From a virus (Duplodnaviria > Caudoviricetes), in IMG/VR virus record IMGVR_UViG_3300037482_000205, positions 1 through 35,721 of that record: 35,721 bases of DNA. One strand, 5' to 3'. Each line of letters starts with the position of its first letter. Within the stretch, counting starts at the first letter, position 1. A model generated the notes under the pieces. That model was not told the origin of the DNA. It did no database searches and worked only from the letters and a program-made list of their open reading frames with translations. The position numbers were made by a program, and so were the translations under genes. Shown piece by piece: positions 2,222 to 34,805 of this stretch.

Positions 2222-3036
2222 ACGGATTCGTAGTTCTCTTCGGTAGTGCCGCGGCCGGCGCCGCGGCCCCGCGCGACCTCGACGTCGTGGTCGGCGGGCA
2301 GACCTCGGCGGCCGACGCCGTCTCAGCCGCGCAGGCGTGGTGGCTGGTTGAGCACCACGGCACCCAGGCGCGCGACGATCTCGCGCAGCAGCTCCGCGAT
2401 ACTCCGCCGCCGCCGGTGGAGGTCACTCGTCAGCGGGAAACCTACCGCGACGGGTCGGTCTACCTGCTCCGCCCGCGCGGGGCGGAGACCACCGCAATCG
2501 TGCTCCGCGGGGAGTGCGTGGTCCGGTGGTCGGACGTGGACAGCCTGCCGGCCGCGATCAGGCTCGCCACCGACGGCTATCGCGATCTCGCGTCGGACAT
2601 GATGAGTCGCCTGCTCCGCGAGGGCGGTGACCGCGTGCCGCTCAGTCTCGCCGACTACGACAAGGGATCGCCCATCGGCGCTGGCGGCTACTCCGGGGAC
2701 GGGCCGGTCGCGCTCGAGAGGGCGTTGTCCCGGATCGACCGGGAGGCCCCCCTCGGCGAGGTCATGCCGTCGCCGTTCCCGGCGGCGCTGAACTCGCTCC
2801 TGACCACGATCAGGGCCTGCCCCGGCGTGTGGTCGGGCACCTTGCCGCGGGTCAACATCGCCGACAAAGGACCCGTGTTCGAGGGCCTGCGGCACTACTG
2901 GCAGGACTGCACGCCCCTCGGTTGCCGCGGCTACGTCGGCCCGATCGACATCGTCCTGGAGTACGGCCGGAAGATCCCGATCAGTCTGGTCGAGGACATC
3001 ATCGTTGCCAGCGACCCGACGGGGACCCGGCCGTGA
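2218..3036 (+). CDS. Pol-beta superfamily nucleotidyltransferase-domain protein
   Basis: N-terminal VVLFGSAAAGAAAPRDLDVVV matches hGS-x9-DhD; candidate third acidic residue in PVEV; ATGA-coupled to the RHH gene. Confidence 0.65.
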   Translation: MNGFVVLFGSAAAGAAAPRDLDVVVGGQTSAADAVSAAQAWWLVEHHGTQARDDLAQQLRDTPPPPVEVTRQRETYRDGSVYLLRPRGAETTAIVLRGECVVRWSDVDSLPAAIRLATDGYRDLASDMMSRLLREGGDRVPLSLADYDKGSPIGAGGYSGDGPVALERALSRIDREAPLGEVMPSPFPAALNSLLTTIRACPGVWSGTLPRVNIADKGPVFEGLRHYWQDCTPLGCRGYVGPIDIVLEYGRKIPISLVEDIIVASDPTGTRP

Positions 3037-3134
3037 CCCTCTGGCAGCAGGCCGCCGCCGCCCTCTCCGACCTCTGGCCGGTGGTCGCGCTCGCCGCCTT
3101 CGTGGCGGGAGTGATCGTCGGCAGCTACCTCTGA
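3033..3134 (+). CDS. 33-aa single-TM membrane peptide
   Basis: GTGA overlap with the NTase stop; MTLWQQAAAALSDLWPVVALAAFVAGVIVGSYL. Confidence 0.55.
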   Translation: MTLWQQAAAALSDLWPVVALAAFVAGVIVGSYL

Positions 3135-3142
3135 CCACTATT

Positions 3143-3171
3143 CCGCGCCCGGTGCTCGCGACCGGGCGCGG
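3143..3171. repeat. Perfect 11-bp inverted repeat (hairpin) before the Csx16-like gene
   Basis: CCGCGCCCGGT-gctcgcg-ACCGGGCGCGG, ending 6 nt before the AGGAGA RBS. Confidence 0.75.
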
Positions 3172-3188
3172 TCTTCCAGGAGACCATC

Positions 3189-3476
3189 ATGGAAACCGTA
3201 GTCGTCACCCGTCACCACGGACTGATCGAGTACCTGCGAGCCGAGGGGCTCGCGCCCGCTGATTGCGAGGTGATCGACCACGCCACCCCGGACGCCGTGC
3301 GCGGCAAGCGCGTCATCGGCGTTCTCCCCCTGTGGCTGGCCGCCGAGGCCGCCGAGGTGGTCGAGATCCCGATGAGCATCCCGCCTGAGCTGCGCGGGGT
3401 GGAGCTGACCGCCGAGCAGACGGCGGAACACGCAGGCGAGCCGCGGACGTACCGGGTCGAAGCCGTCTCGCAGTGA
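3189..3476 (+). CDS. csx16: Csx16 (Cas_VVA1548)-family protein, putative cyclic oligoadenylate ring nuclease
   Basis: 95 aa; VTRHHGLIEYL...DH...VIGVLPLWLAA...IPPELRGVELTAEQ...YRV matches the family pattern TRHxG, VIGxLPxxLAA, PxExRGxEL; RBS AGGAGA at 3178-3183. Confidence 0.8.
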   Translation: METVVVTRHHGLIEYLRAEGLAPADCEVIDHATPDAVRGKRVIGVLPLWLAAEAAEVVEIPMSIPPELRGVELTAEQTAEHAGEPRTYRVEAVSQ

Positions 3477-3481
3477 CCCCG

Positions 3482-3512
3482 GCCCAGCCGCCTGTAGCCT
3501 CGGGCGGCGGGC
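3482..3512. terminator. GC hairpin between convergent gene blocks, probable terminator
   Basis: GCCC(A)GCCGCC...GGCGGCGGGC stem between stops at 3476 (+) and 3517 (-); no U-tract. Confidence 0.5.
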
Positions 3513-3516
3513 TCCC

Positions 3517-4698
3517 TCAGAGCTGACCGACCGCCGCCTCGACCGCCAGCAGCGTCCGCTCAGTATCCGCCGCCTTCGCCTCCCCCTTCCGCTGCCGGTC
3601 CCACGTGGCGCGCAGCTCGGCGAGGCGCTCACGCACGAGGCGCAGCGCGGGGTCTCCCGGTGGCGGAAGGGGCGGCGGCTCGACCGGTGGTGCCGGGGGC
3701 TCGGCCGTCTCGCCGACGATCCGCCCGCCGGCGATGTCGATGATGATCTCAGTCCAGTCCGCGCCCACGCCGGCGACGTTGGCCGTCCCGAGCGACTTAC
3801 CCCCGCCGCGCACGGACCAGGAGCCCGGGGCGATGCGCACGGCGGCCGCCGGGGGCTTGGTGACGATGAAGCGGTCCTCGCCGGCGATGCTCGACACCAG
3901 GGGCTGCGTCCGGTTCTTGCCGGCGCCGTAGCTGCTGATCACCGTCATCCAGGCGATGTGCCCCCGCCCGCGCAGCACGTGCAAGCCCTGGATGCACCTG
4001 ATCGGTTCGATGAGGCTCGCCAGCGCGGGCGACAGCGCCCCCTCGAGAATCCAGGCGCTGAGGGCAAGCCGCTCGGCCGAGCTGAACAGCCCCGGCACGT
4101 CGCGGTCGACCACGGCCCGGTAGGCGGCCATCGCCTCCATCCACTGGGGTCCGGTGCCCGGCTGTCGCTGCCATTCCATCCCGGCGGCCACGGCAACCGC
4201 GTAGTCGGTATCGATGTTGATCGCGCCGCCGGCGGTCCACCCGTCGGAGTCTCGCGGTAGGAGCGCCCGCCCGCACGGCATGACGCACCGGGGGCGGGAG
4301 TCCGAGCAGCAGAGGGCGGCGATGGTGAGGTCCCAGCGCAGGAACTCCCGGGCGGCGCTCCGCAAGTCCGTGTGCACCCGTTGCCACATGCGAGCCCATC
4401 CGCAGGCCGCCAGTGCCGCCACCCGCTGAAGGTGGCCGTAGCCGACCGACAGCCCCTCGAACTCGCCGCGGTGACCCTCCCGCGAGCGCGCGTAGAAGTC
4501 GACCAGGGCCTCGACGGTCGCGGTCAGCCGGTTCCCGGCCACCAGGTTGCAGGCGAGCCGGAGGTGTTGGAGGTTCGTCTCGCCCTCGCCCGTCAGCCCG
4601 CCGTCGTGCTTGGCGGCCTGAGCCATGGCGGCAGCGTCGAGCGGGGTGCCGCGGTTGAGCCAGCGGACGAGGGCGTCGTCAAGTAGGACCTTGGCCAT
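3517..4698 (-). CDS. Hypothetical protein (393 aa, Pro-rich linker, C-terminal coiled coil)
   Basis: ATG at 4698 (MAKVLLDD) overlaps the upstream TGA; long ORF in a coupled chain; no family recognised. Confidence 0.7.
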   Translation of the reverse strand: MAKVLLDDALVRWLNRGTPLDAAAMAQAAKHDGGLTGEGETNLQHLRLACNLVAGNRLTATVEALVDFYARSREGHRGEFEGLSVGYGHLQRVAALAACGWARMWQRVHTDLRSAAREFLRWDLTIAALCCSDSRPRCVMPCGRALLPRDSDGWTAGGAINIDTDYAVAVAAGMEWQRQPGTGPQWMEAMAAYRAVVDRDVPGLFSSAERLALSAWILEGALSPALASLIEPIRCIQGLHVLRGRGHIAWMTVISSYGAGKNRTQPLVSSIAGEDRFIVTKPPAAAVRIAPGSWSVRGGGKSLGTANVAGVGADWTEIIIDIAGGRIVGETAEPPAPPVEPPPLPPPGDPALRLVRERLAELRATWDRQRKGEAKAADTERTLLAVEAAVGQL

Positions 4699-5228
4699 CA
4701 GGTGGTCCCTCCGAGCTTGGCGAGGGCGGCGCGCAGCTCGCGGGCGACCCTTACCAGCTCTCGATCCCCGCCGACGGTGTTGGCGCTCTCCCACGAGAAC
4801 TCGGCCGCCCTCCGTTCCAGCCGCCCCGGCAGGGCCAGCAGCTCGGCCAGCGCCTCTGCTGCGCGGGAGGGCGGGGCGGCCAGGTCGGGGCGACGCCAAA
4901 GGCGCACGATGGCGCGCGCTGTGTCGTACATGTGCTCCCGGTCGTCACCGCGGGGCAGCGCGATGGCCGCCTCCAAATGCTTGCTGACCTCCCCCAGAGC
5001 CCCCCGCAGCCGCAGCTCGCTCGCCGCTGCGGCCAGCTCGACGCCGGCGAGGACGGCGGGCCACGCGGCCTCCATGGCGCTGAGGACGTTGCGCTTCGTT
5101 ACCTTGACCGCAGCCCGCGCTACGTCCATCGTGCTGTAGTGCCTGAAGTCCTCCGGCATGTCGCCGGGCAGCTCGGGCTCGGTCTCCACAGCCGCGACCA
5201 GCGCCGCCGGCAGGGCGGGAGCGGTCAC
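4698..5228 (-). CDS. Hypothetical phage protein
   Basis: GTGA-coupled start; EPELPGDMP motif; GGAGG upstream. Confidence 0.65.
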   Translation of the reverse strand: MTAPALPAALVAAVETEPELPGDMPEDFRHYSTMDVARAAVKVTKRNVLSAMEAAWPAVLAGVELAAAASELRLRGALGEVSKHLEAAIALPRGDDREHMYDTARAIVRLWRRPDLAAPPSRAAEALAELLALPGRLERRAAEFSWESANTVGGDRELVRVARELRAALAKLGGTT

Positions 5229-5449
5229 TCGCACACCTCCTCTCCCAATCCGTGCGCCTTGGCCGCCGCGAGCATCTGCAGGACGTCTCCGGAGGCGATG
5301 GCGTCCTCGGTCTGGCGGATCAGGGCCGAGGTGACGGCGCGGGAGATGGCGCACCCCGGACCCGGCAGGATCTTCTCGGCCTCATCCAGCTCCACCAGGA
5401 ACTGCCGGCTCTTGCGGTTCTCCTCTTGCAGGGCTTCCACGAGGTTCAT
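5225..5449 (-). CDS. Hypothetical phage protein (74 aa)
   Basis: MNLVEALQEE...AIASGDVLQMLAA; ATGA overlap with the upstream gene. Confidence 0.7.
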   Translation of the reverse strand: MNLVEALQEENRKSRQFLVELDEAEKILPGPGCAISRAVTSALIRQTEDAIASGDVLQMLAAAKAHGLGEEVCE

Positions 5450-6801
5450 GGGCACACCCCGGGCACCGCCCGCACCGCCTCGAGTAGGGCTTCTGCTACG
5501 GGATCCACCGGTGGGCAAGGGGGGCACGTCGGATCGGGAGCCGGCGTGCAGTCCGCCGGGCACACCTCGCTGGGTTCGCAGGTGCCGTCGCCGCAGAGCG
5601 GAGGCGGGGGCTCGGGTGGAGCCCAGCAGGCCAGCCGCAGATCCTCGAATCGCTGGCAGTCGGCGGGTAGGCCAGCGAAGCAGGCGGGCCGCGCGGTGTT
5701 GACGTAGAGCGCCCGCGGGGAGAACCAGTAGGAGCACACCGCTCGCGGGTCGGCGGTCGGGTAGTACTGGACGATCCCGCCGCCCGGCACATCAGCTCCC
5801 CGCCAGCGCTCGGGCGGCAGGTCGAGCAGCGGCGGACACGTCCACCCTGTCGGGCACGGCCCTGACGTCGGGCACGTCCTGACCTCGTGGGGTGGGCAAC
5901 TCGCCCACCCGCACGACAGCATGTGGCAGCCGAGGGTCGCCCCAGCCGTCACGTGGGCGTCGCAGGCGGCGCGTCCGGTAGCCCCCGGGGCCTCGCACGC
6001 CGGTACGCCAGTCCCGCCCACCAGCGCGCGCCAAGCGGCGCCCACGGCACGGCACTCGCCACCGTGTTGGCCGCACCAGTTGCCGAGCCCCCAGCCGGAG
6101 GGCTTCGGGTAGGCGTAGCGATGGCGCCAGCAGGCGAGGTCGGAGCGCACAGGTGTTCTGCCCTCGCAGTCCACGGCGCACGTCTCGGGCGTCTCGGGGA
6201 TCTCGCAGCGGCCATCGCCACAGCGCTCGGTCGCCGTGCGGAACACTCCGTCGGCCCACGGGTCGCACGGCGCTGCCGGCACGCTCCGGGTATCGCGCAC
6301 CCGCCCGGGATTGCAGCGCAAGTCGCCAGAGCAGTAGTAGACCAGGTCGCCGGGGGCGAGGGGACGGGGGAGGTCCTGCGCCGCGGCGGGGGCGGCGAGC
6401 AGCAGGACCGCCAGCACCAGCCCCGGCGTCCCGCCCGGCGGCGGCTTGGGCCACTGCCGTTTCGGGCGCCTCGTCATCCTCCGCATCTCGCTGAGGGTCT
6501 GAGCGTCGCGATCCTGCCGCTTGCCCCGGACCGCCTGCCCGGCCCGCTTGATCGCCGTGTAGCCAACTCCGCCCGCGGTAGAGCCGCCCGCCGCGACGAT
6601 CAAGAGGCTCCCCAGCATCGCCCGGTCTCCATCGCCCCACACCGCCCAGACGATCACGGCGCAGAGCTGGCCGAGCACGGCGTTGATGGCGGTCGACCAG
6701 CGATCTACCCAGCGCCACTCCTTGCCGGCCTGAGTGAGCAGCGGACCACCGACGGCGGCGAGTAGGGCGGAGAGCAGTAGGTAGGGGGTTGCGGTTTCCA
6801 T
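5446..6801 (-). CDS. Holin-like multi-TM N-terminus fused to an internal signal peptide and a Cys-rich exported domain
   Basis: ATG 6801 with GGAG RBS; three hydrophobic segments in the first ~85 aa; basic stretch then GLVLAVLLLAAPAAA-Q; C-terminal part very Cys-rich with CGDGRCEIPETPETCAVDC and CGDGTCEPSEVCPADC. Confidence 0.7.
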   Translation of the reverse strand: METATPYLLLSALLAAVGGPLLTQAGKEWRWVDRWSTAINAVLGQLCAVIVWAVWGDGDRAMLGSLLIVAAGGSTAGGVGYTAIKRAGQAVRGKRQDRDAQTLSEMRRMTRRPKRQWPKPPPGGTPGLVLAVLLLAAPAAAQDLPRPLAPGDLVYYCSGDLRCNPGRVRDTRSVPAAPCDPWADGVFRTATERCGDGRCEIPETPETCAVDCEGRTPVRSDLACWRHRYAYPKPSGWGLGNWCGQHGGECRAVGAAWRALVGGTGVPACEAPGATGRAACDAHVTAGATLGCHMLSCGWASCPPHEVRTCPTSGPCPTGWTCPPLLDLPPERWRGADVPGGGIVQYYPTADPRAVCSYWFSPRALYVNTARPACFAGLPADCQRFEDLRLACWAPPEPPPPLCGDGTCEPSEVCPADCTPAPDPTCPPCPPVDPVAEALLEAVRAVPGVCP

Positions 6802-6809
6802 GGGGACTC

Positions 6810-7157
6810 CTATCCGTGCTTGGGTGGGCGGAAGGGGTCGAGGGCGCGATGCATCCGCTCGATCGTGTCGGTGTAGCTTCTGCCGCGAGCGACGTACTCG
6901 TGTAGAGCGGCAGTGATCTCGGCCTCTGCGGCCTTGATCTCTGCGGCGCGGTCGGTCCTCTTCGGGAAGACCCCCGCCATCGCCGCTTTCGCTTCCGGGC
7001 ATTCCCCCGACTCCGCCGGCGATCCGTGGCCGGCTTCGCACGAGCAGAGGCCGATCGGCGGGGCGTCATCCTCGTCACTGCGGACGGTCATCCGCCAGCG
7101 ACCGAGGGGCTCGCCGTGCTTGTCGCGCATCTCCAGGGGTTGGTAGGTCTCGGCCAT
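6810..7157 (-). CDS. Hypothetical phage protein (CxC-H-C putative metal site)
   Basis: ATG 7157 after AGGAG; LCSCEAGH...EC. Confidence 0.65.
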   Translation of the reverse strand: MAETYQPLEMRDKHGEPLGRWRMTVRSDEDDAPPIGLCSCEAGHGSPAESGECPEAKAAMAGVFPKRTDRAAEIKAAEAEITAALHEYVARGRSYTDTIERMHRALDPFRPPKHG

Positions 7158-10493: not shown

Positions 10494-10756
10494 AGACCCA
10501 GCTCCTCTCGCCAAGCCCGCGACCCCTCGGCAGTCGTGACGGCCAGCGTCGCGCCGAGGTGGGCGGCGACGTCAGCGTCGGCGATGGTGTAGCCCTCGGC
10601 CTGCCAGCCGCGGGAAAGGTTCGACAGGTCGGAGACCCGGACCGGGCCGTAGACCGCGATCCCGTGCGGGCGGCGCTCGAGACGCACGACGGCCGCCTCG
10701 ATCACCCCGCTCCGCAGCATGCCGGGCGGCACCGGGGGCGGTGTAGACCAGGGCAT
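10490..10756 (-). CDS. Hypothetical protein (88 aa)
   Basis: ATG overlapping the upstream TGA, GGAGG RBS. Confidence 0.55.
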   Translation of the reverse strand: MPWSTPPPVPPGMLRSGVIEAAVVRLERRPHGIAVYGPVRVSDLSNLSRGWQAEGYTIADADVAAHLGATLAVTTAEGSRAWREELGL

Positions 10757-11145
10757 CAGCGCACCGCCTCCAGTGCCGCCCGGCAGACCGCTTTGGCGAG
10801 GGCGCCGCGCCAGTCGCCGCGGACGATGCTCTGCTCCGCGAAACCGTCGAGTTTCCTGGCATGCCCGAACTCCACGTAGACCACCGGCTCGGCGGCGTCT
10901 TTGCTGTCGAGCGAGATAGAGAGTTCTTTGCCCCGCTCGCGCATCGCCCCGATCACGTCCATGAGATCGCCTGAGTTGTCGAGCGGGTGCCAAGCCCCGC
11001 CGCTCGGCGCCCGGACATGCCAGCCGTCCGGATCGAGGTAGACGGGATTGCCGCAGCCAGAGCAGTCGGCCTCTTTGCAGGTGCTCCACCCCATCACGTC
11101 CCGGGCGACGCGGGCGGCGAGCGGGAGGGTGGGGCGGCGGGTCAC
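10756..11145 (-). CDS. Phage ABA-sandwich (BC1872-like) domain protein
   Basis: LAARVARDVMGW...WHPLDNSGDLMDVI...ALAKAVCRAALEAV. Confidence 0.65.
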   Translation of the reverse strand: MTRRPTLPLAARVARDVMGWSTCKEADCSGCGNPVYLDPDGWHVRAPSGGAWHPLDNSGDLMDVIGAMRERGKELSISLDSKDAAEPVVYVEFGHARKLDGFAEQSIVRGDWRGALAKAVCRAALEAVR

Positions 11146-11750
11146 AGCCTCAACTCCTCAGCGGCCCGCTCGTACGCCGCAGCCATCCGCCCCGCGTAGT
11201 CGTGCCGAGCGTGACCGGGGCCGTTGTACCAGCGAGCGAAGGTCGGCCAATCGAGCCCCCGCAGCGCGTCGACCAGCCGCTCGCTCGCCCGGATGAACAT
11301 CACGAACGCCCGCAGGTGATCGTCCACCCCGCGGTACATCGCGGTGATGAAGCGCTGGAGGCTCGGCGAGTACTGCTGATCGCGGCCGAGCTGCTGATAC
11401 AGACCCCACGAGGCGGAGCGGAGCGCCGCGTCTCGGTCGAGCGCCACGGCCGCTTGGAGTCGCCGATGCTGCGCAGAGGTCGGCCCGTAGCCCCCCGGGA
11501 TCGGGTTGGAGATCAGCGACCACGCTGCTGGCGCGCCGGGCACCCGGGCACCGGCGAAGCGACCGCGGGTCAGCTCGTGGAAGACATGGCGCTCGAACAG
11601 GATGGTCGGCTCGCCCGAGTCGAGGAAGGCGCCCTCCCGCCTGGTTTCGACTTCGGCAACGGCCTGGATCGCCGCGGGCTCGCACATCAGGAGCCAGGCG
11701 GCGGCCTGGTAGGCAGCGGGGGTGGGGTGGTCGGCCTTGCGGTCGGTCAC
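11142..11750 (-). CDS. Endolysin, N-acetylmuramidase (DUF3380/PF11860 type), catalytic domain only
   Basis: AIQAVAEVET...GEPTILFERHVF...ALRSASWGLYQ.LG...WPTFARWYNGPG...Y. Confidence 0.92.
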   Translation of the reverse strand: MTDRKADHPTPAAYQAAAWLLMCEPAAIQAVAEVETRREGAFLDSGEPTILFERHVFHELTRGRFAGARVPGAPAAWSLISNPIPGGYGPTSAQHRRLQAAVALDRDAALRSASWGLYQQLGRDQQYSPSLQRFITAMYRGVDDHLRAFVMFIRASERLVDALRGLDWPTFARWYNGPGHARHDYAGRMAAAYERAAEELRL

Positions 11751-11884
11751 AGGTAGATCCCGTTCTGGCGGAGGGTCTCTTCCAGCACCTCGATCCGCCG
11801 CCTGAGTGCGCGCGTCGTCATGAGCGCGCCGGCTCCGATCAGCACCAGGGCTATCGCGAGCACAGCCACCGGCAGGTAGATCAT
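11747..11884 (-). CDS. 45-aa single-TM protein immediately upstream of the endolysin (holin-like candidate)
   Basis: MIYLPVAVLAIALVLIGAGALM plus a charged tail; GGAGG RBS; GTGA-coupled to the endolysin. Confidence 0.55.
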   Translation of the reverse strand: MIYLPVAVLAIALVLIGAGALMTTRALRRRIEVLEETLRQNGIYL

Positions 11885-11915
11885 CGCTTCCTCCCCGTAG
11901 CGGCCCGGCGGTCGG

Positions 11916-12098
11916 TCACGGCAGCTCCCTGATCTCGACCTTGACGGCCCGGTCGCCCGCACGCCGACACTCGTCCCACGTCTGACCGAGCGCCTTGCAG
12001 TGCGCTCTGACAACCTCCCTGCGAGTACGCCCGGGATCCCGCAAGTATCCGTTTCGGTCCTTGATCGCCCACCAACGCTCGGCCACCGGTTCGCTCAC
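11916..12098 (-). CDS. Small hypothetical protein (paralogue of 9820-9993)
   Basis: WAIKDRNG...C..LG..W......GDRAVKVE; GTGA-coupled to the RHH gene. Confidence 0.6.
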   Translation of the reverse strand: MSEPVAERWWAIKDRNGYLRDPGRTRREVVRAHCKALGQTWDECRRAGDRAVKVEIRELP

Positions 12099-12292
12099 CG
12101 CTTCACCCTCCCCGCAGCGGCCCGGCAGTGCCGTCCGCCGGGCTCGCTGCGCTCGACTGCACCACGGAGGATCCAGCGCACCTGATCGCTCAGGCGCCGC
12201 CCGTCCTTGGCCGCGAGCTGCTTGAGCGAGTCGGCCAGATCCTCGTGGATGCGAATGTTGATGCGGGCGGTCAGATCGCGGCGTCGCGGCAT
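12095..12292 (-). CDS. Arc/ribbon-helix-helix DNA-binding protein
   Basis: TARINIRIHEDLADSLKQLAAKDGRRLSDQVRWILRGAV; leaderless ATG 7 nt after CACAGT. Confidence 0.85.
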   Translation of the reverse strand: MPRRRDLTARINIRIHEDLADSLKQLAAKDGRRLSDQVRWILRGAVERSEPGGRHCRAAAGRVKR

Positions 12293-12345
12293 GTACCCCA
12301 CTGTGGCACGTGGGAGAGGCCGCGCGGGGGCTTACGAGATTTCAG
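12293..12345 (-). promoter_or_regulatory. Conserved box plus extended -10 promoter, copy 1
   Basis: Minus strand: CTGAAATCTCGTAA, 23 nt, TGC-CACAGT, 7 nt, ATG (12292). Confidence 0.6.
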
Positions 12346-12543
12346 TCAGCGAGCCAGCACCACCCGCCGCGGAGTAGCCCCCTCCGGTAGATGCTGCAGC
12401 TTGACCGCCGTCTCGCTGTCGCGGACGCCGATGCCGCGGAGGGCCTGCTCGACTACGCCGGCGACACGAGCCCGGGCGTCGGGATCGTCGAGTGCGCCGA
12501 AGCGGTAGTCGACGCGCAGCAGGTAGGGGCGCAGCGGGGGCAT
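12346..12543 (-). CDS. Hypothetical protein (65 aa)
   Basis: MPPLRPYLLRVDYRF...; fills the gap between the PAS and RHH genes; TGA-TAGGAT extended -10-like site upstream near 12601-12609. Confidence 0.5.
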   Translation of the reverse strand: MPPLRPYLLRVDYRFGALDDPDARARVAGVVEQALRGIGVRDSETAVKLQHLPEGATPRRVVLAR

Positions 12544-12640
12544 GATCTCGGCTCGCGGGTGGGCATGCGTGATCCTGGCTGCGCCTTCGGTGCGGCGGCG
12601 ATCCTATCACTACCGGTATCAGTGGCACCAGCCCAGCAGG

Positions 12641-13309
12641 TCAGTCCGGAGCCGCCCCGTCGTCGCGCACCCAGGCGAGTGAAGTACCGGCATCGTAGGC
12701 AATCGCATACCACCGCAGACGCCGGTAGCCGCCATCCTTGCAGCGGAAGCGATTCGGGAAGCTGTCCACCGGCGAGGACCACGTCCCACCCTCGGCCGCC
12801 TGGGTCCGCTGGAAGTCCTCGGGGTGGCAGAGTCTGCGCCAGCCCATGCTGACGATCTCCTCCCGCGTCCAGCCGAGGACGTCGCAGAAAGACTGGTTCA
12901 CCCACAGTAACGAGCCGTTCCCCGAGGATCCGGTGATCGCCCACGGTACGGGCAGCCCGTCCAAGAGCGCGGCCACGGGCGCGGCGTTGCGCGCCAGCAG
13001 CTCCGCCGCCTTGAGCAGGGGGTACTCGCTGGCGTACCAGCCGAGGTCACGCTGAAGCCCATGGATCGTTTCGAGCGCGGCTTCCAACTCCATCGACTTC
13101 ACCTCCAGCGCGGAGATAGCGGTATCCTCAGCCACGTGCGCATCCCGGCGGCGCTGACGCTCGCGGTCGATCTCGACGGCGGAGTCAGCACCGGCATCGC
13201 GACGCAGCTTCGCCAGATCGGCGCGGGCACGCCATACGGCAATTGCTGCCCCGGAGAGGGTCGCCAGCACGCCAGCCACCGCCACCGCCTGCGCTAGAGT
13301 GATTTCCAT
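12641..13309 (-). CDS. Membrane-anchored PAS-domain protein (TM, coiled coil, PAS)
   Basis: N-terminal TM AVAVAGVLATLSGAAIAVW; coiled coil; PAS signature LLDGLP...G.LLWVNQSFCDVLGWTREEI...W..LCHPED...NRFRCKDGGYRRLRW. Confidence 0.88.
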   Translation of the reverse strand: MEITLAQAVAVAGVLATLSGAAIAVWRARADLAKLRRDAGADSAVEIDRERQRRRDAHVAEDTAISALEVKSMELEAALETIHGLQRDLGWYASEYPLLKAAELLARNAAPVAALLDGLPVPWAITGSSGNGSLLWVNQSFCDVLGWTREEIVSMGWRRLCHPEDFQRTQAAEGGTWSSPVDSFPNRFRCKDGGYRRLRWYAIAYDAGTSLAWVRDDGAAPD

Positions 13310-13661
13310 GGCGACGATCCTGATGATCGATGATCACCCGCACATGCGGGAGCTATCCCGATACCTGCTCGCGCGAGCGGGACACCGAGTACTCCTCTGC
13401 GCGCGAGGAGAGGATGGCCTCGCCATCGCTGCCAGGGAAAAGCCCGATCTCGTATTGATCGATCTCAACCTGCCTGGCGGGATCGACGGGTACGAGACGA
13501 TGCGCCGCATGCCGGCGGGAACACGAGCGGTTGCCTTCACCGCCTACCCCGGGGAGATCCTGGCCGCCGGCTTCGCCGGCCGGATCGACAAGGCGGTGCG
13601 ATCGGAAACCTTTGTCGATCAGGTCGAGGCGTTCCTGCCTACGGGGGCGGCCGCAAGATGA
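13308..13661 (+). CDS. Single-domain response regulator (CheY/DivK-like receiver)
   Basis: ILMIDD...GEDGL...EKPDLVLIDLNLPG.IDGYE...AFTAY...AGF...IDK; phospho-acceptor Asp, Thr and Lys present; TAGAGT 7 nt before the ATG. Confidence 0.9.
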   Translation: MATILMIDDHPHMRELSRYLLARAGHRVLLCARGEDGLAIAAREKPDLVLIDLNLPGGIDGYETMRRMPAGTRAVAFTAYPGEILAAGFAGRIDKAVRSETFVDQVEAFLPTGAAAR

Positions 13662-13845
13662 TGATCACTTCCTCTTCCTTCGACCCCAGCGTCTCGGCGT
13701 CGAAGGCCTGGAGCTTCTGGTCGACCTGCTCGGAGAGGTCCTGCAGCACTTCGTCGACCAGGGCGCGGATCTCATCTGCCTGCTCGGCGGAGATCGGGAG
13801 TTGCGGCGTGTAGGCGGTGACGGCGGAAGCCAGCTTATTGCTCAT
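13639..13845 (-). CDS. Small acidic hypothetical protein
   Basis: 68 aa, ATGA-coupled to the upstream gene; 3' end overlaps the receiver gene by 23 nt. Confidence 0.6.
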   Translation of the reverse strand: MSNKLASAVTAYTPQLPISAEQADEIRALVDEVLQDLSEQVDQKLQAFDAETLGSKEEEVIIILRPPP

Positions 13846-14105
13846 GGTCGGCAGATCTCCTCAACCCGCTTGCGGGTGTGCACGCCTTCCAGTTGGACGG
13901 CGGTGGTCATCTTGAAATCTCGGTCGCGCTCCTCTGCCCGGTGCTCGGTCAGCACGCGGGCGCACTCGCGCAGCTCGGCGGTGAGCGCGTCCTTGAGCTG
14001 CTCGTTTTCTTCCTGCAATCCCCGTACGGCGAAGTAAAGGCATGCAGCACCGACTATAAGAATCAGGCATACCGCGACGTCGAACCATCGCGGGCGAGGG
14101 CGCAC
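13842..14105 (-). CDS. N-terminal TM plus coiled-coil protein (i-spanin-like or holin accessory)
   Basis: WFDVAVCLILIVGAACLYFAV then GLQEENEQLKDALTAELREC. Confidence 0.55.
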   Translation of the reverse strand: MRPRPRWFDVAVCLILIVGAACLYFAVRGLQEENEQLKDALTAELRECARVLTEHRAEERDRDFKMTTAVQLEGVHTRKRVEEICRP

Positions 14106-14407
14106 TACGAATCCTCCCCTTGCTCATGGTCGTACGGCGGGGCGGTTGGCTGCTGGAATAGCTCGGTCACGCGCCTCTGAATGGCCTCCCCTCGCCCGGG
14201 GGCGATGTACTCCACCGCCGTGAGCAACAGGGCGCTTTGGCGCTGGATCGTGATGCTGAGTCCCTCGATCGCGTGGCGGTCGGCCGCCATCGAACGAAGA
14301 TAGTCGCGGCGCTCCATCTTTCGATCGCGCTGCTGCGCGATGATGAAGTAGGCCAGCACCAGCGATGCCGGGGCACCGGAGAGCGCGGCGATGACCGAGG
14401 GATCCAC
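14105..14407 (-). CDS. Single-TM holin-like protein
   Basis: GTG 14407; VIAALSGAPASLVLAYFII plus a charged coiled tail; TAGTCT 7 nt before the GTG. Confidence 0.55.
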   Translation of the reverse strand: MDPSVIAALSGAPASLVLAYFIIAQQRDRKMERRDYLRSMAADRHAIEGLSITIQRQSALLLTAVEYIAPGRGEAIQRRVTELFQQPTAPPYDHEQGEDS

Positions 14408-14424
14408 GGCGCCTAGACTACCTG

Positions 14425-14467
14425 AAAAGAGTGCGGGCCGCCCCTGGAGGGTACAGGAGCGGCCCGC
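14425..14467 (-). terminator. Intrinsic terminator/attenuator hairpin
   Basis: Minus strand GCGGGCCGCTCCTG-taccctc-CAGGGGCGGCCCGC followed by ACTCTTTT. Confidence 0.65.
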
Positions 14468-14486
14468 CGATGGAGGAGAGACGCAT

Positions 14487-14540
14487 GACCCCGGAATAGT
14501 GGCAGATCTGTTGGGGAGCACGAGGGTTATGGGATTTCAG
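14487..14540 (-). promoter_or_regulatory. Conserved box plus extended -10 promoter, copy 2
   Basis: Minus strand: CTGAAATCCCATAA, 22 nt, TGC-CACTAT, 9 nt, ATG (14486). Confidence 0.55.
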
Positions 14541-14561
14541 CACGGGCTCGCAGCGCTCAGG

Positions 14562-15533
14562 TCAGCCACCGCACCCCGCGTCAATCCACTCGCGGTGTCC
14601 GCCCTCTGCTACCGGGCGGTCGAGGTAGGCGAACAGCCCGGCGCGAGTGGTCGCGTCGAAGGCGTGGCGGTAGAACATGCCCTCGCGGAAGAAAATGGTG
14701 CCGGGGTACTCCAGATCCGTCCCGGTGCCGTTGACGTGGTAGCAGCTCAGGCACCCGAATTCTGGACCGCTGGGCGGGGCAATGGCGCCGATGTCGAACT
14801 CCTCCCACGGCGAGCACGGGAGGCGGCGCCACATCCGCAGGGATGCATCTAGGCGCCGCTCGACCACGGCCGCCATGCGGGTATTGAGCGGGACGTTGCC
14901 GAACGTCACCTTCCCGGGACTGCCGACGCGGATCTGCCAGGCGCCGGAGCTAGAGACGGTGATGTAGCTCGGCATCGCCGCGGGGTTCGCATAGCCGATG
15001 ATCTTGCCCGGCGTGTGGACGTAGCCGGCGAGCACGAATGCCCACGGGTCGGAGGCTCCGACCGACCACGGATTCTGCTCGCAGACGCACGGGCCGGGGT
15101 TGCAGACGGTGCAGTTCTGGAAGACGAGCTGATCGTTGCCGTCAAACATGATGCCGTCGATCTCGGCGAGCGGACCCCATTCGACGGTTGGCTCGGTGGC
15201 TTCCCTGGTGGTGCCCGAGAGAGCGAGGAGGTGGTGCACCCAAGAGCCCGGCGGAGGTGGGTCGCCCATCTCGCCGATCTGCACCGGCGGCTCGATGCCA
15301 GGCTCGACGGCGTGGGCAACGTCCCACCGCCAGTGCGCCTCCAGTCCGGCGAGGGGCGGGCCGCTTGTCGGCGGCGGGTCCTCGCAGGTCGGGGGCGGCG
15401 GGCACTCGGGAGCCTCGGCACAGGAGATCGAGATCTGCTCGCCGTGACTCAGCTCGACGGGGGCGACCTGAGAGGCGGCGGGCGCGGCTAGCAAGAAGGC
15501 CAACCAAGCGAAGGCGAAACGACGATTCATCAT
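14562..15533 (-). CDS. Exported Cys/Pro-rich protein with LamG/concanavalin-like domain
   Basis: Signal peptide MMNRRFAFAWLAFLLAAPAAS-Q; LAGLEAHWRWD...GIMFDGND...YITV...GMFYRHAFDATTRAGLFAYL pattern. Confidence 0.65.
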   Translation of the reverse strand: MMNRRFAFAWLAFLLAAPAASQVAPVELSHGEQISISCAEAPECPPPPTCEDPPPTSGPPLAGLEAHWRWDVAHAVEPGIEPPVQIGEMGDPPPPGSWVHHLLALSGTTREATEPTVEWGPLAEIDGIMFDGNDQLVFQNCTVCNPGPCVCEQNPWSVGASDPWAFVLAGYVHTPGKIIGYANPAAMPSYITVSSSGAWQIRVGSPGKVTFGNVPLNTRMAAVVERRLDASLRMWRRLPCSPWEEFDIGAIAPPSGPEFGCLSCYHVNGTGTDLEYPGTIFFREGMFYRHAFDATTRAGLFAYLDRPVAEGGHREWIDAGCGG

Positions 15534-16609
15534 GCACAGCTCCCTGTACCGGATAGATCGTTTACCATCACCCAGGCGGCCGACCAACAGATGCAGAAAG
15601 CGCCGGAGGTGTCGGTGTATTGGTCGCCGTTCGCACATGCCGCGGGTGCGGTGGCGATGGTTCCAGGCCGAAGGATGGCGGCGCCGGTGCTGCCGGCTCC
15701 AAAGTCAACATATCTGCCGTTCGCGTCTACACGCAGGCGAAAGAGCCTCTGCACCGTCCAGGCAGTTTCGCCATCGTTCAAGATGCCGAACTCCAGCACC
15801 GCGTTGCCCGACCCGCCCGTGTTGCGTATCGTCCAGCGCTTGAGCCCGGTGCTCGCGGCGGATTGATAGATCTGAATGTCGGGCGGCCAGGTGCCGTCCC
15901 CTTGGAGGAATATGCGGTTGCGGGAGTCGGTGAAGGTGAAGTCCGCCCCCGCGGACTTCAGCAGCGCCCCGCCGGCTCCGTCGGCGAGCAGCAGGGCGTT
16001 GTCGACCGCCCCGGTCGAGCCGCCGATGCCGCCACCGCCGCTCGGCGTCGCGATGCAGCTCGGTACGCCGCTCGCCCCGTACTCGACGATCTCGTCAGGC
16101 CCGGCGCAGGCCGCCAGCTCATCCAGCCCCACGGAGTCGGCTGCCAGAGACAGCACGTCGAGCCCGCCGCTGAGGTCTCCGCCCACGGTGTCGCAGCCGC
16201 CCTCGCCGTCCTGGTAGGTCGAGGTCCCGGCGCAGTCTGGGGAGGGGCCGGTGTCGGTGGTGTGCTCGGCGTCCACCTCCTCGATCGCCGCCTGAACGTC
16301 CGCGGCGGCTACCCCGCCGGCTGGGGTGAACGGCACCTCGGCGGCGACCTGATCGTCGGTTCCGCCGGCCGCGAGCAGCGGCACCCAGGCAGTCCCGTCG
16401 CACCAGCACGGCGCCGGGGTCGCGCCGCCGCCGACGGTGCAGTCGACGGTGGTCAGCCCGTCGGTGGCGATGGCGAACCGTGGGCCGAAGGTGCCGCTGG
16501 CCTCGCAGGCGCCAAGCCCGTCCACCGGCCAGCGCGGAGGGTGGCGGATCTGCCCGGAGGCCGAGCCGGAAACGAGTAGGAGCAGCGCTACCGCTGCAGC
16601 AATTCTCAC
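15530..16609 (-). CDS. Tail-fibre/adhesin-like protein carrying a Sec signal peptide
   Basis: GTG 16609; MRIAAAVALLLLVSGSASG-Q; fibre-type motifs DDQVAAEVPFTP...DVQAAIEEV, GSTGAVDNALLLADG and APAACANGDQYTDTSG. Confidence 0.7.
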   Translation of the reverse strand: MRIAAAVALLLLVSGSASGQIRHPPRWPVDGLGACEASGTFGPRFAIATDGLTTVDCTVGGGATPAPCWCDGTAWVPLLAAGGTDDQVAAEVPFTPAGGVAAADVQAAIEEVDAEHTTDTGPSPDCAGTSTYQDGEGGCDTVGGDLSGGLDVLSLAADSVGLDELAACAGPDEIVEYGASGVPSCIATPSGGGGIGGSTGAVDNALLLADGAGGALLKSAGADFTFTDSRNRIFLQGDGTWPPDIQIYQSAASTGLKRWTIRNTGGSGNAVLEFGILNDGETAWTVQRLFRLRVDANGRYVDFGAGSTGAAILRPGTIATAPAACANGDQYTDTSGAFCICWSAAWVMVNDLSGTGSCA

Positions 16610-16663
16610 GGTCGTCAATCCTCGCAGAGCGGCGGTCCCTCTCGGACCGTTACGGGATTTCAG
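16610..16663 (-). promoter_or_regulatory. Conserved box plus extended -10 promoter, copy 3
   Basis: Minus strand: CTGAAATCCCGTAA, 23 nt, TGC-GAGGAT, 8 nt, GTG (16609); GAGGA could also act as RBS. Confidence 0.55.
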
Positions 16664-16671
16664 CGCGGACC

Positions 16672-16700
16672 TTGACTCGCGGATGCGCATGGTCTACACT
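16672..16700 (+). promoter_or_regulatory. Sigma70-type promoter for the antisense gene at 16824
   Basis: TTGACT (16672-16677), 17 nt, TACACT (16695-16700). Confidence 0.7.
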
Positions 16701-16742
16701 CGGGCTGTCGAGGCCGCTGCGATGCTCAACCCAACAACCTCT

Positions 16743-16800
16743 CCCGCCCGGCCGCTCGCGCGCAGCGGCCTCGACAACCGCTTGCGGGCGGCCGGGCGGG
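16743..16800. repeat. Long GC-rich hairpin in the 5' leader of the antisense gene
   Basis: CCCGCCCGGCCGCTCGCG pairs with TGCGGGCGGCCGGGCGGG (18 bp with two G-U pairs), plus inner AGCGG/CCGCT. Confidence 0.7.
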
Positions 16801-16823
16801 GGTTCTGACTGAGGGAGATCGTC

Positions 16824-17177
16824 ATGCGTACTGCCATGGTTGCTCTGCTACTCGCCATCTCGGCGGGCTTCTTCGCCCCCATCGGATCGCTCAGCGCGGA
16901 CGGGTCGATCGACGTCGCCAAGGCGCCGCCGCCCACCCCGGCCGGTATAACCTTCGGGGAGTTCTACCTGGAAGGCCGGGTCAACGGGTTCGCCATCGAA
17001 GATGGCGGCGCCGCCGGGTCGGTCACGGTGGCAGGAGTCGAGGTCACGGTTGACGGATTCCCCACGGTGGAGGCCGGGGGGTGCGTCGAGGTTACGGGCG
17101 TGGCCGTGTTCGACGGCGGCCACCTGATCAACCGGGTCACCTCCCCCGGGCACTTCGTCAGCGTCGCCTGCGAGTAG
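16824..17177 (+). CDS. Exported small beta protein, DUF5666/OB-fold-like (moron)
   Basis: GAGGGAG RBS; signal peptide MRTAMVALLLAISAGFF...; LEGRV...SVTVAGVEVTV...GGCVEVTG; two Cys. Confidence 0.65.
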   Translation: MRTAMVALLLAISAGFFAPIGSLSADGSIDVAKAPPPTPAGITFGEFYLEGRVNGFAIEDGGAAGSVTVAGVEVTVDGFPTVEAGGCVEVTGVAVFDGGHLINRVTSPGHFVSVACE

Positions 17178-29717: not shown

Positions 29718-29912
29718 ATGCCCACGTTGCCCGAAGGCGTAGAGTTCGTGACCGCCGGCCAGCTCGCCCGCACGCTCGGCGTCGGCAAGCGGACCGTCTA
29801 CGCGCTGATCGAGGTCGGCGAAGTGCCGGCCACCAGGCCGCTGCGGGAGTACCGGATCAGGCGGGAGGATGCTGTGGCGGCGATCGAGCGGGCGAAGCAG
29901 AGGGCGCGATGA
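29718..29912 (+). CDS. HTH_17 excisionase/MerR-like DNA-binding protein
   Basis: FVTAGQLARTLGVGKRTVYALIEVGEVPATR..REYRIRRED. Confidence 0.85.
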   Translation: MPTLPEGVEFVTAGQLARTLGVGKRTVYALIEVGEVPATRPLREYRIRREDAVAAIERAKQRAR

Positions 29913-34637: not shown

Positions 34638-34805
34638 ATGGAAGACACAGTGACCCCGAAGGAGCTGGCGGCGGAGTTCCGCTGCCACCCCGATACCGTG
34701 AGGCGGTTGATTCGGAACGGGAAGCTGGCCGCCTACCGCGTGGGCGGGCAGTGGCGGATCAAGGCGGAGGATGTGGAGAAGCTGAAAAGGGAGGTGGCAG
34801 CATGA
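34638..34805 (+). CDS. HTH_17 excisionase-like DNA-binding protein
   Basis: TVTPKELAAEFRCHPDTVRRLIRNGKLAAYRVGGQWRIKAEDVE; TACCAT 8 nt before the ATG. Confidence 0.9.
   Translation: MEDTVTPKELAAEFRCHPDTVRRLIRNGKLAAYRVGGQWRIKAEDVEKLKREVAA

Follow-up and report, generated by a model that had tools for sequence, protein, structure and literature searches.

A membrane-anchored PAS protein and a lone receiver domain share a variable slot near the lysis genes of an uncultured sediment phage

Lysis time sets phage fitness. The best-studied external control over it is the lysis inhibition of phage T4, in which the antiholin RI acts on the holin T and the signal, superinfection, is read in the periplasm (PMC11413866). 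LysF1b of the F1 cluster mycobacteriophages Girr and NormanBulbieJr is a lysis regulator of 124 aa with a single transmembrane (TM) segment in a predicted N-out/C-in orientation (10.64898/2025.12.04.692442). The Mu releasin, gp25 (DUF2730), frees a SAR endolysin (PMC9239132). A phage-encoded PAS domain is found in VqmA of vibriophage VP882, where it binds DPO, a host ligand, drives dimerisation and sets off the lytic program (PMC8284805). Among bacterial proteins, single-domain response regulators such as DivK, LovR and MrrA act as shuttles or sinks (PMC5964349). In the open-licence literature, no study was found that deals with lysis cassettes containing PAS or receiver genes.

The window, i.e. 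the whole stretch of DNA analysed here, consists of a single linear phage contig (35,721 bases, 68.5% GC) that is about 45% complete. Its minus strand carries the genes for capsid, head-tail adaptor, tail tube, tape measure and a muramidase endolysin, and near the lysis genes this uncultured sediment phage carries a sensor/receiver pair. Parts of window 11000-16000 are present in 14 sequencing runs, which are 13 sediment metagenomes and one soil metagenome, with no RNA data set listed among them. Only one of these (X1) has more than half of the words of the region; a 1137-nt contig of this run, possibly the source sample itself, matches 12542-13678 with no differences. The PAS/receiver junction is also crossed, again with no differences, by a contig of a second run (X2) over 13077-13385. 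Both genes are intact, and each shows coding-type GC by codon position. Capsid and endolysin matches scatter over many hosts, all below 60%, and give no host assignment. A domain search detected no HATPase_c in the contig, in keeping with the initial observation that the window has no histidine kinase; as the contig is only about 45% complete, the phage may have a kinase elsewhere in its genome.

The PAS gene (12641..13309, minus strand) encodes a protein of 222 aa that consists of one hydrophobic segment (residues 8-26), a charged helix reaching to residue 89 and a PAS domain at about 108-220. The PAS_3 profile matches residues 136-205 (44.5 bits; cut-off 25.6), and there is no further domain and no output domain. 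An AF2 model (mean pLDDT 84) has a helix over residues 5-89, and the best PDB match by Foldseek is a Leptospira PAS structure, 8px4 (TM-score 0.86 by target). Profile match, hydropathy and predicted helix together bear out the first-pass annotation, which had described a TM/coiled-coil/PAS protein without kinase or output domain. Five basic residues follow the TM segment and none precede it; the protein is therefore predicted to sit N-out/C-in, with coil and PAS in the cytoplasm. A sensor histidine kinase, whole or truncated, was rejected, since neither the protein nor the contig has HisKA or HATPase domains and the PAS domain branches apart with 99/100 support. A LOV photoreceptor was rejected as well: the flavin-adduct cysteine motif of LOV domains, GxNCRFLQ, corresponds here to the stretch SMGWRRLC, and GWxxL is present in all 15 rows of the family described below.

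Layout invites comparison with the lysis proteins named above. As in LysF1b, there is one N-terminal TM segment, a predicted N-out/C-in orientation, basic residues after the TM segment, a long charged cytoplasmic helix and a place among lysis genes. The likeness considered is one of layout. LysF1b lacks a PAS domain, efficient lysis requires it and it comes after a 2-TM partner, whereas the window protein is optional and ends in a PAS domain, and its coil has 38% KRDE against about 50% in LysF1b. The Mu releasin is likewise a membrane-tethered cytoplasmic protein and governs lysis without being a canonical holin. However, it has no sensor domain, and membership of the releasin class was rejected, because the window protein has no DUF2730 match and the window endolysin has no hydrophobic anchor segment. 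T4 lysis inhibition shares the proposed principle that a signal delays lysis via the partner of a single-TM holin, but the predicted sensor here is cytoplasmic and has a PAS fold. VqmA also is a phage-encoded PAS protein, namely a soluble PAS-HTH transcription factor that works on the lysis-lysogeny switch, in contrast to the membrane-anchored window protein, which has no DNA-binding domain.

A full HMMER search with the PAS protein returned 15,880 proteins at E <=0.001. Among the best 150 of these, 11 besides the query are short single-stretch proteins of 198-254 aa, and together with the query and three further members from DNA scans (L003, L007 and L009) they form an anchor/coil/PAS family of 15 members, 198-254 aa in length. 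When 155 proteins were ranked by single-domain rescoring, the 12 best after the query (97-72 bits) were all short anchor/coil/PAS proteins, and the best long protein reached 62 bits. A tree of 53 PAS domains, midpoint-rooted and with a bootstrap that had not fully settled, places all 15 family rows plus the long-branch L004 on one side (99/100); the PAS proteins of L005 and L006 are near-relatives outside the family clade. A hydrophobic N-terminal segment is found in 14 of the 15 rows, 13 of them scoring at least 1.6; that of L003 scores 1.85 from its corrected start, and P0160 only 1.31. The three best matches (0.96) in the Atlas feature search are PAS clusters of 187-229 aa that are recorded as 100% viral. 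Compared with 80 long proteins, the family has specific PAS positions at W136, G156-W157, E173, A/T176-W177, R199 and Y205. From the general PAS topology, E173 and W177 would point towards the pocket, and W136 and R199 would be turned to the outer sheet. Judged from sequence comparison, the PAS protein is a member of a separate family of short proteins and not a kinase remnant. The concern that the nearest homologues might be full-length host kinases and the locus a decaying one is thus not substantiated for PAS, where short relatives rank first on a branch of their own.

Other searches extended the family little. The tblastn comparison of family members with 50,697 phage records gave no matches, and word-indexed protein searches gave only the query itself or rows already known. 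A motif scan of metagenomes yielded three loci (L007, L009 and L008, the last identical to L003). The motif fits 13 of the 15 family rows, and its sole GTDB match (L010) is false; further false motif matches (L011, L014-L018) and long multi-domain frames (L012, L019-L021) were excluded from the context counts. The anchor/coil half of the window protein shows a weak resemblance to a PAS-less TM protein of L003 (57% probability over 35 columns).

The receiver gene (13308..13661, plus strand) encodes a single-domain, DivK-like receiver of 117 aa. Its Response_reg match has 57.3 bits against a cut-off of 30.2, there is no output domain, all five phospho-site residues are kept (D8, D9, D52, T78 and K95), and the AF2 model has the receiver fold with a pLDDT of 94; the earlier identification as a single-domain CheY/DivK-like receiver is therefore sound. 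The 29 receiver matches include host-type DivK- or CheY-like lone receivers at 36-49%. A DivK orthologue was rejected, since the score against the DivK family NF045717 is 30.8 bits (cut-off 160), and the protein is DivK-like by resemblance only; it falls under the cut-off of each of the NCBIfam receiver families shown. Receiver domains typically have a Lys-Pro motif and an aromatic switch residue on beta5. The window receiver has KA where all 15 other rows have KP, and R92 at the beta5 aromatic position, which is Tyr in 12 of the 15. In addition, two deletions of 5 aa shorten alpha3-beta4 and alpha4, the latter to one turn. The output face (alpha4-beta5-alpha5) is eroded. The GC3 of the gene is slightly lower (0.76), there is no Shine-Dalgarno sequence, and the stop codon comes from flanking sequence. 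The protein resembles DivK, LovR and MrrA in being a lone receiver with an intact phospho-site, and the closest homologues carry the names DivK or CheY-like in their source records; it differs from them in being phage-borne and antisense, with shortened alpha3-beta4 and alpha4 and KA in place of KP. A complex prediction with PAS residues 60-222 and the receiver scored 0.01 against a mark of 0.32, a result that counts neither way on binding.

Receiver matches were found at 24 loci of the viral collection, 18 of which were examined; the six omitted have the same match scores as L030, L035 or L038. The closest match, at 39%, lies within a kinase/receiver/receiver-cyclase operon (L022), and this points to capture of the receiver from a host. 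In three related prophage records (L023-L025, near 4001-4360), a lone receiver gene lies antisense between those of a Q-like antiterminator and the terminase and is not near lysis genes. At four loci, receivers are fused to or beside TM proteins, with no endolysin identified there (L039, L043, L044 and L045): L043 has two receivers before a coil-TM gene (3860-5588), L039 a receiver fused to two TM segments (3989-4810), and L044 a receiver-TM protein beside a PAS kinase (2553-4665). The remaining receiver loci are mostly host-type regulators.

The two genes of the window are adjacent, as the first-pass annotation had noted, but they are on opposite strands and not in tandem; both start codons lie in a single CATG (13307..13310) in a head-to-head overlap that is crossed by the X1 and X2 contigs. 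The receiver start is taken as the homologous one, because the N-terminus MATIL is invariant in all eight rows of alignment A4. A candidate -10 box of the leaderless type, TAGAGT (13295..13300, plus strand), lies 7 nt before the receiver ATG and inside PAS codons 3-5. Conversely, the putative ribosome-binding site of the PAS gene, AGGA (13318..13321, minus strand), is inside receiver codons 4-5, so that any receiver mRNA with its 5' end at 13308 would contain the complement of this site. Further along the minus strand, TAGTCT (14415..14420) lies 7 nt upstream of the GTG at 14407 as another candidate -10 box, and a hairpin of 14 bp, 12 of them G-C, with a T-rich tail (14433..14467) is a candidate terminator of the tail-gene unit; terminator-type hairpins number two in 6.5 kb against 1.5 expected. 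A candidate extended -10, TGaTAGGAT (12601..12609, minus strand), faces four small genes and the endolysin gene from just beyond the slot that holds the pair, and the endolysin is therefore likely to be in a separate unit with its own TM neighbour of 45 aa.

TAnnnT occurs 5-8 nt upstream of 13 of the 1754 ATG or GTG codons in the window. Among 988 starts of frames of at least 45 aa, nine have it at 6-8 nt, compared with a total of 28 at the other 28 distances; of the nine, two precede plus-strand HTH_17 genes inside the late region, and four look like shadow or internal frames. In 40 kb of the phage record G001, which carries L003, there are 18 at 6-8 nt against 80 over 28 distances, and the set includes the family PAS gene and its divergent neighbour. 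It is likely from these motifs that the receiver and the 100-aa TM gene described below use leaderless promoters. Small plus-strand genes at 29718-29912, 34638-34805 and 2015-2221, two of them HTH_17 genes, run against the late genes and also have TAnnnT 6-8 nt upstream of the ATG, from which it seems that this phage expresses counter-oriented regulators from leaderless promoters. The same 12-mer, TGATTTCCATGG, is present at the divergent junction in the window (13300-13311) and in L003 (5873-5884), in both on the side away from the PAS gene, which may be chance. A minus-strand hairpin at 13462-13444 is weak and at chance level. As to an inversion of the receiver, no convincing flanking inverted repeat was found, nor any strand-change joint in seven runs.

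The endolysin gene (11142..11750, minus strand) lies 0.9 kb from the pair, as reported from the first inspection, and encodes an N-acetylmuramidase (PF11860, 149 bits; PHROG 1224 and 2860, endolysin). Hydropathy shows no TM or signal-anchor segment. Its start is overlapped by the gene of a 45-aa single-TM protein (11747..11884, minus strand; hydropathy 2.58 at residues 4-22, no family match), which may be holin-like. This is one of four small genes in the interval between PAS and endolysin; another (12095..12292, minus strand) encodes a ribbon-helix-helix-like (RHH) protein with an RHH_5 E-value of 6e-4, under the cut-off. Around the candidate extended -10, a palindromic stretch (12540-12625) is matched by related contigs in several runs that then diverge, some of them into another palindrome; it is a possible operator for the RHH protein. 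Contigs from other runs skip approximately 10596-10695, 10820-10943, 10992-11086 and 11902-12090, so strain variation extends to the small genes near the endolysin as well.

On the other side of the pair, an acidic protein of 68 aa without a TM segment (13639..13845, minus strand; coding-like GC) has no family match over cut-off and no viral relative found; the last 23 nt of its gene overlap the receiver end, and the gene is kept in relatives that differ in the slot. It separates the receiver from two single-TM genes on the minus strand. The first (13842..14105; hydropathy 2.47 at 9-27) encodes 87 aa with a basic N-terminus followed by a coil, a topology that is apparently Rz-like; a pattern search at 9-17 kb found no lipobox partner. 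The second (14105..14407; hydropathy 2.12 at 5-23) encodes a putatively holin-like protein of 100 aa with a charged C-terminal helix, and is likely the first gene of a leaderless unit; an Atlas lead points to the BhlA holin, which is on 28% of a cluster (score 0.88). The description of 13842-14407 as flanking holin/spanin-like TM genes holds as far as one TM segment each is concerned. The label is one of topology, since Pfam, PHROGs and NCBIfam gave no holin or spanin match for either gene, and the 68-aa gene intervenes.

At the boundary between tail and lysis genes, the pair forms a cassette that is optional. Over 13639-13950, X2 and X6 contigs are about 97% alike to the window; they depart from it exactly at 13639, where the 68-aa gene has its stop and the receiver its last homologous codon (P111). 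On the other side, contigs of X2, X5 and X7 depart at 12613-12616, in a variable flank with further exits at 12567-12598. These divergence points define a slot (12617..13638) that holds other sequence in close relatives, and run X2 contains both forms. Among the related contigs none joins across the slot; the X7 contig extends about 1 kb further and does not rejoin. At the right-hand loose ends a minus-strand frame begins with GTG-P-E-I-L-E, and these five residues are also found near the N-terminus of P0101, a weak hint that another anchor/coil/PAS-type allele may fill the slot in relatives. Being optional in close relatives, the pair cannot be an essential holin.

Seven distinct phage loci have a short PAS protein and DNA context, and in four of these, the window, L004, L005 and L006, an endolysin is identified by family match within about 1 kb; this is a raw count, uncorrected for any background rate of lysis adjacency. 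The endolysin is an amidase in L004, a PHROG endolysin in L005 and an M15 peptidase in L006. The L004 locus (5008-7155) has, in tandem, the amidase gene, a TM gene, a short PAS gene, a lone receiver gene and a coil-TM gene, in a record (G002) that is 76% complete and has no kinase. The other three loci (L003, L007 and L009) have TM-protein or lysin-like neighbours. The L003 PAS gene lies between a virion protein gene and a run of TM genes, to which it is antisense; no endolysin was found in the 29 frames scanned in 40 of the 71.5 kb of G001. In L007, the PAS gene is directly followed by a cut-off frame without any family match that has a DCSG motif, presumably NlpC/P60-like. L009 is a fragment of 1.6 kb in which the PAS gene has a tail-like frame on one side and a small hydrophobic gene on the other. 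A kinase ATPase domain is present in none of the four other PAS-bearing phage records (G001-G004), and the receiver is absent from three of them, the complete G001 and the incomplete G003 and G004; G002 has it in tandem after the PAS gene.

Similar arrangements are found in cultured phages. In Alteromonas phage vB_AspP-H4/4, gp42-45 (L002, 3485-4830) are a holin, a TM gene, a receiver and a 2-TM gene in a row. The receiver, gp44, thus lies among holin and TM genes as in the window, but in tandem and with no PAS partner in view; the genome note does not discuss it (PMC5658483). In Cellulophaga phage phi19:1, gp108 follows three TM genes and precedes a lysozyme gene by 1.5 kb; it was paired with the Foldseek match R9ZZL0 by length alone and has no sequence match to the PAS family. 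On the proposed association of PAS and receiver genes with endolysins, the loci examined here are divided: PAS proteins or lone receivers recur beside lysis genes (L004-L006 and H4/4), but within the strict 15-member family, of which four have DNA context (window, L003, L007 and L009), an identified endolysin is nearby in the window only. The pair is part of an uncharacterised phage theme of PAS and receiver genes among lysis genes.

The link of the pair to lysis is circumstantial. The reading that we tentatively prefer, at somewhat less than an even chance, is that the PAS protein is an accessory lysis modulator with a topology like that of LysF1b or releasin, in which the PAS domain serves as a ligand gate, and that the separately expressed receiver acts as a sink. 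The protein would sit N-out/C-in and dimerise via coil and PAS. A cytoplasmic ligand, perhaps read by E173 and W177 on helix F, would shift the coil and hence the TM helix, and this could bring about earlier or later holing by the neighbouring single-TM proteins, on which the endolysin would depend because it has no export signal. Transcription of the receiver gene would begin on the PAS start codon and give a leaderless mRNA complementary to the ribosome-binding site of the PAS gene, and the two genes would consequently tend to alternate and not be co-expressed; reciprocal expression is a prediction from the sequence layout. The receiver would drain phosphoryl groups from host kinases without a relay, as the eroded alpha4-beta5-alpha5 face suggests. 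The idea of a module that links host physiology to lysis is upheld in so far as the relatives are short anchor/coil/PAS proteins, and such proteins, as well as lone receivers, recur beside lysis genes. A single co-expressed module, which that idea had implied, is not borne out in that form: the receiver is antisense with a likely promoter of its own, has lost part of its output surface and is missing from three of the four other PAS-bearing records. A bolder form, which appears quite unlikely, is a two-signal switch in which the membrane PAS gates the holin-like proteins by a metabolite, the receiver taps host phosphorylation and silences the sensor via its leaderless mRNA, and strains swap the cassette to change the lysis rule.

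The pair may alternatively be a host-manipulation moron without a lysis role, where the anchored coil/PAS protein heterodimerises with and jams a host sensor kinase that the receiver drains, and the location would simply reflect a hot spot of insertion at the late-region end. We consider this rather unlikely. It would accommodate the variable slot, the lone antisense receivers away from lysis genes in L023-L025 and the PAS gene of G001, antisense to a TM-gene cluster with its own candidate promoter, and the single-domain PAS protein MopJ is reported to act on the DivJ kinase (PMC4432633). However, a wide distance separates the family PAS from kinase-type PAS domains, with differences at W136, G156, E173, W177, R199 and Y205, which would make for poor mimicry, and unrelated lineages (L004, L005/L006, H4/4 and phi19:1 gp108) place PAS or receiver among lysis genes. 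That both genes occupy one slot, and that PAS and receiver are in tandem in L004, argue for joint function over independence. A single signalling module, with a host or unseen phage kinase phosphorylating the receiver, which then binds the PAS protein or the holin and sets lysis time, would further agree with the kinase-free L004 record, the gene row of H4/4 and the complete phospho-site; it is nonetheless unlikely, given opposite strands with a probable antisense overlap of the PAS ribosome-binding site, the eroded output face and the same PAS family without any receiver in the complete G001. Least probable is decay of host DNA, in which a truncated kinase gene and a receiver gene would both be turning into pseudogenes. 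It is refuted for the PAS gene, whose family is conserved with equal length and layout, and is tenable, at low probability, for the receiver only, where the lost Pro after K95, two deletions, flank-supplied stop, lack of a Shine-Dalgarno sequence and GC3 would suit it; the receiver nevertheless keeps every catalytic residue at about 50% divergence, is modelled with high confidence and has a well-placed candidate -10 box.

If the accessory modulator reading is true, a cytoplasmic ligand sensor on a lysis-type anchor would mean that phages can match the moment of bursting to host metabolism even once the lytic decision has been made. The proteins are small and have family-specific residues, natural strains exist with and without the cassette, and H4/4 is a cultured phage with a receiver among its holin genes, all of which make the proposal testable. 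In its shared CATG, the pair also offers a compact example of how a coding mRNA might exert cis-antisense control.

Beyond the lysis genes, at the end of the tail region, the minus-strand genes at 14562-15533 and 15530-16618 have signal-peptide-like starts and encode Cys/Pro/Gly-rich proteins with no family match. Next to them (16672-17177, plus strand) is a counter-oriented gene of 117 aa with a hydrophobic N-terminus and a Shine-Dalgarno-like site, preceded by a promoter-like TTGACT-17-TACACT.
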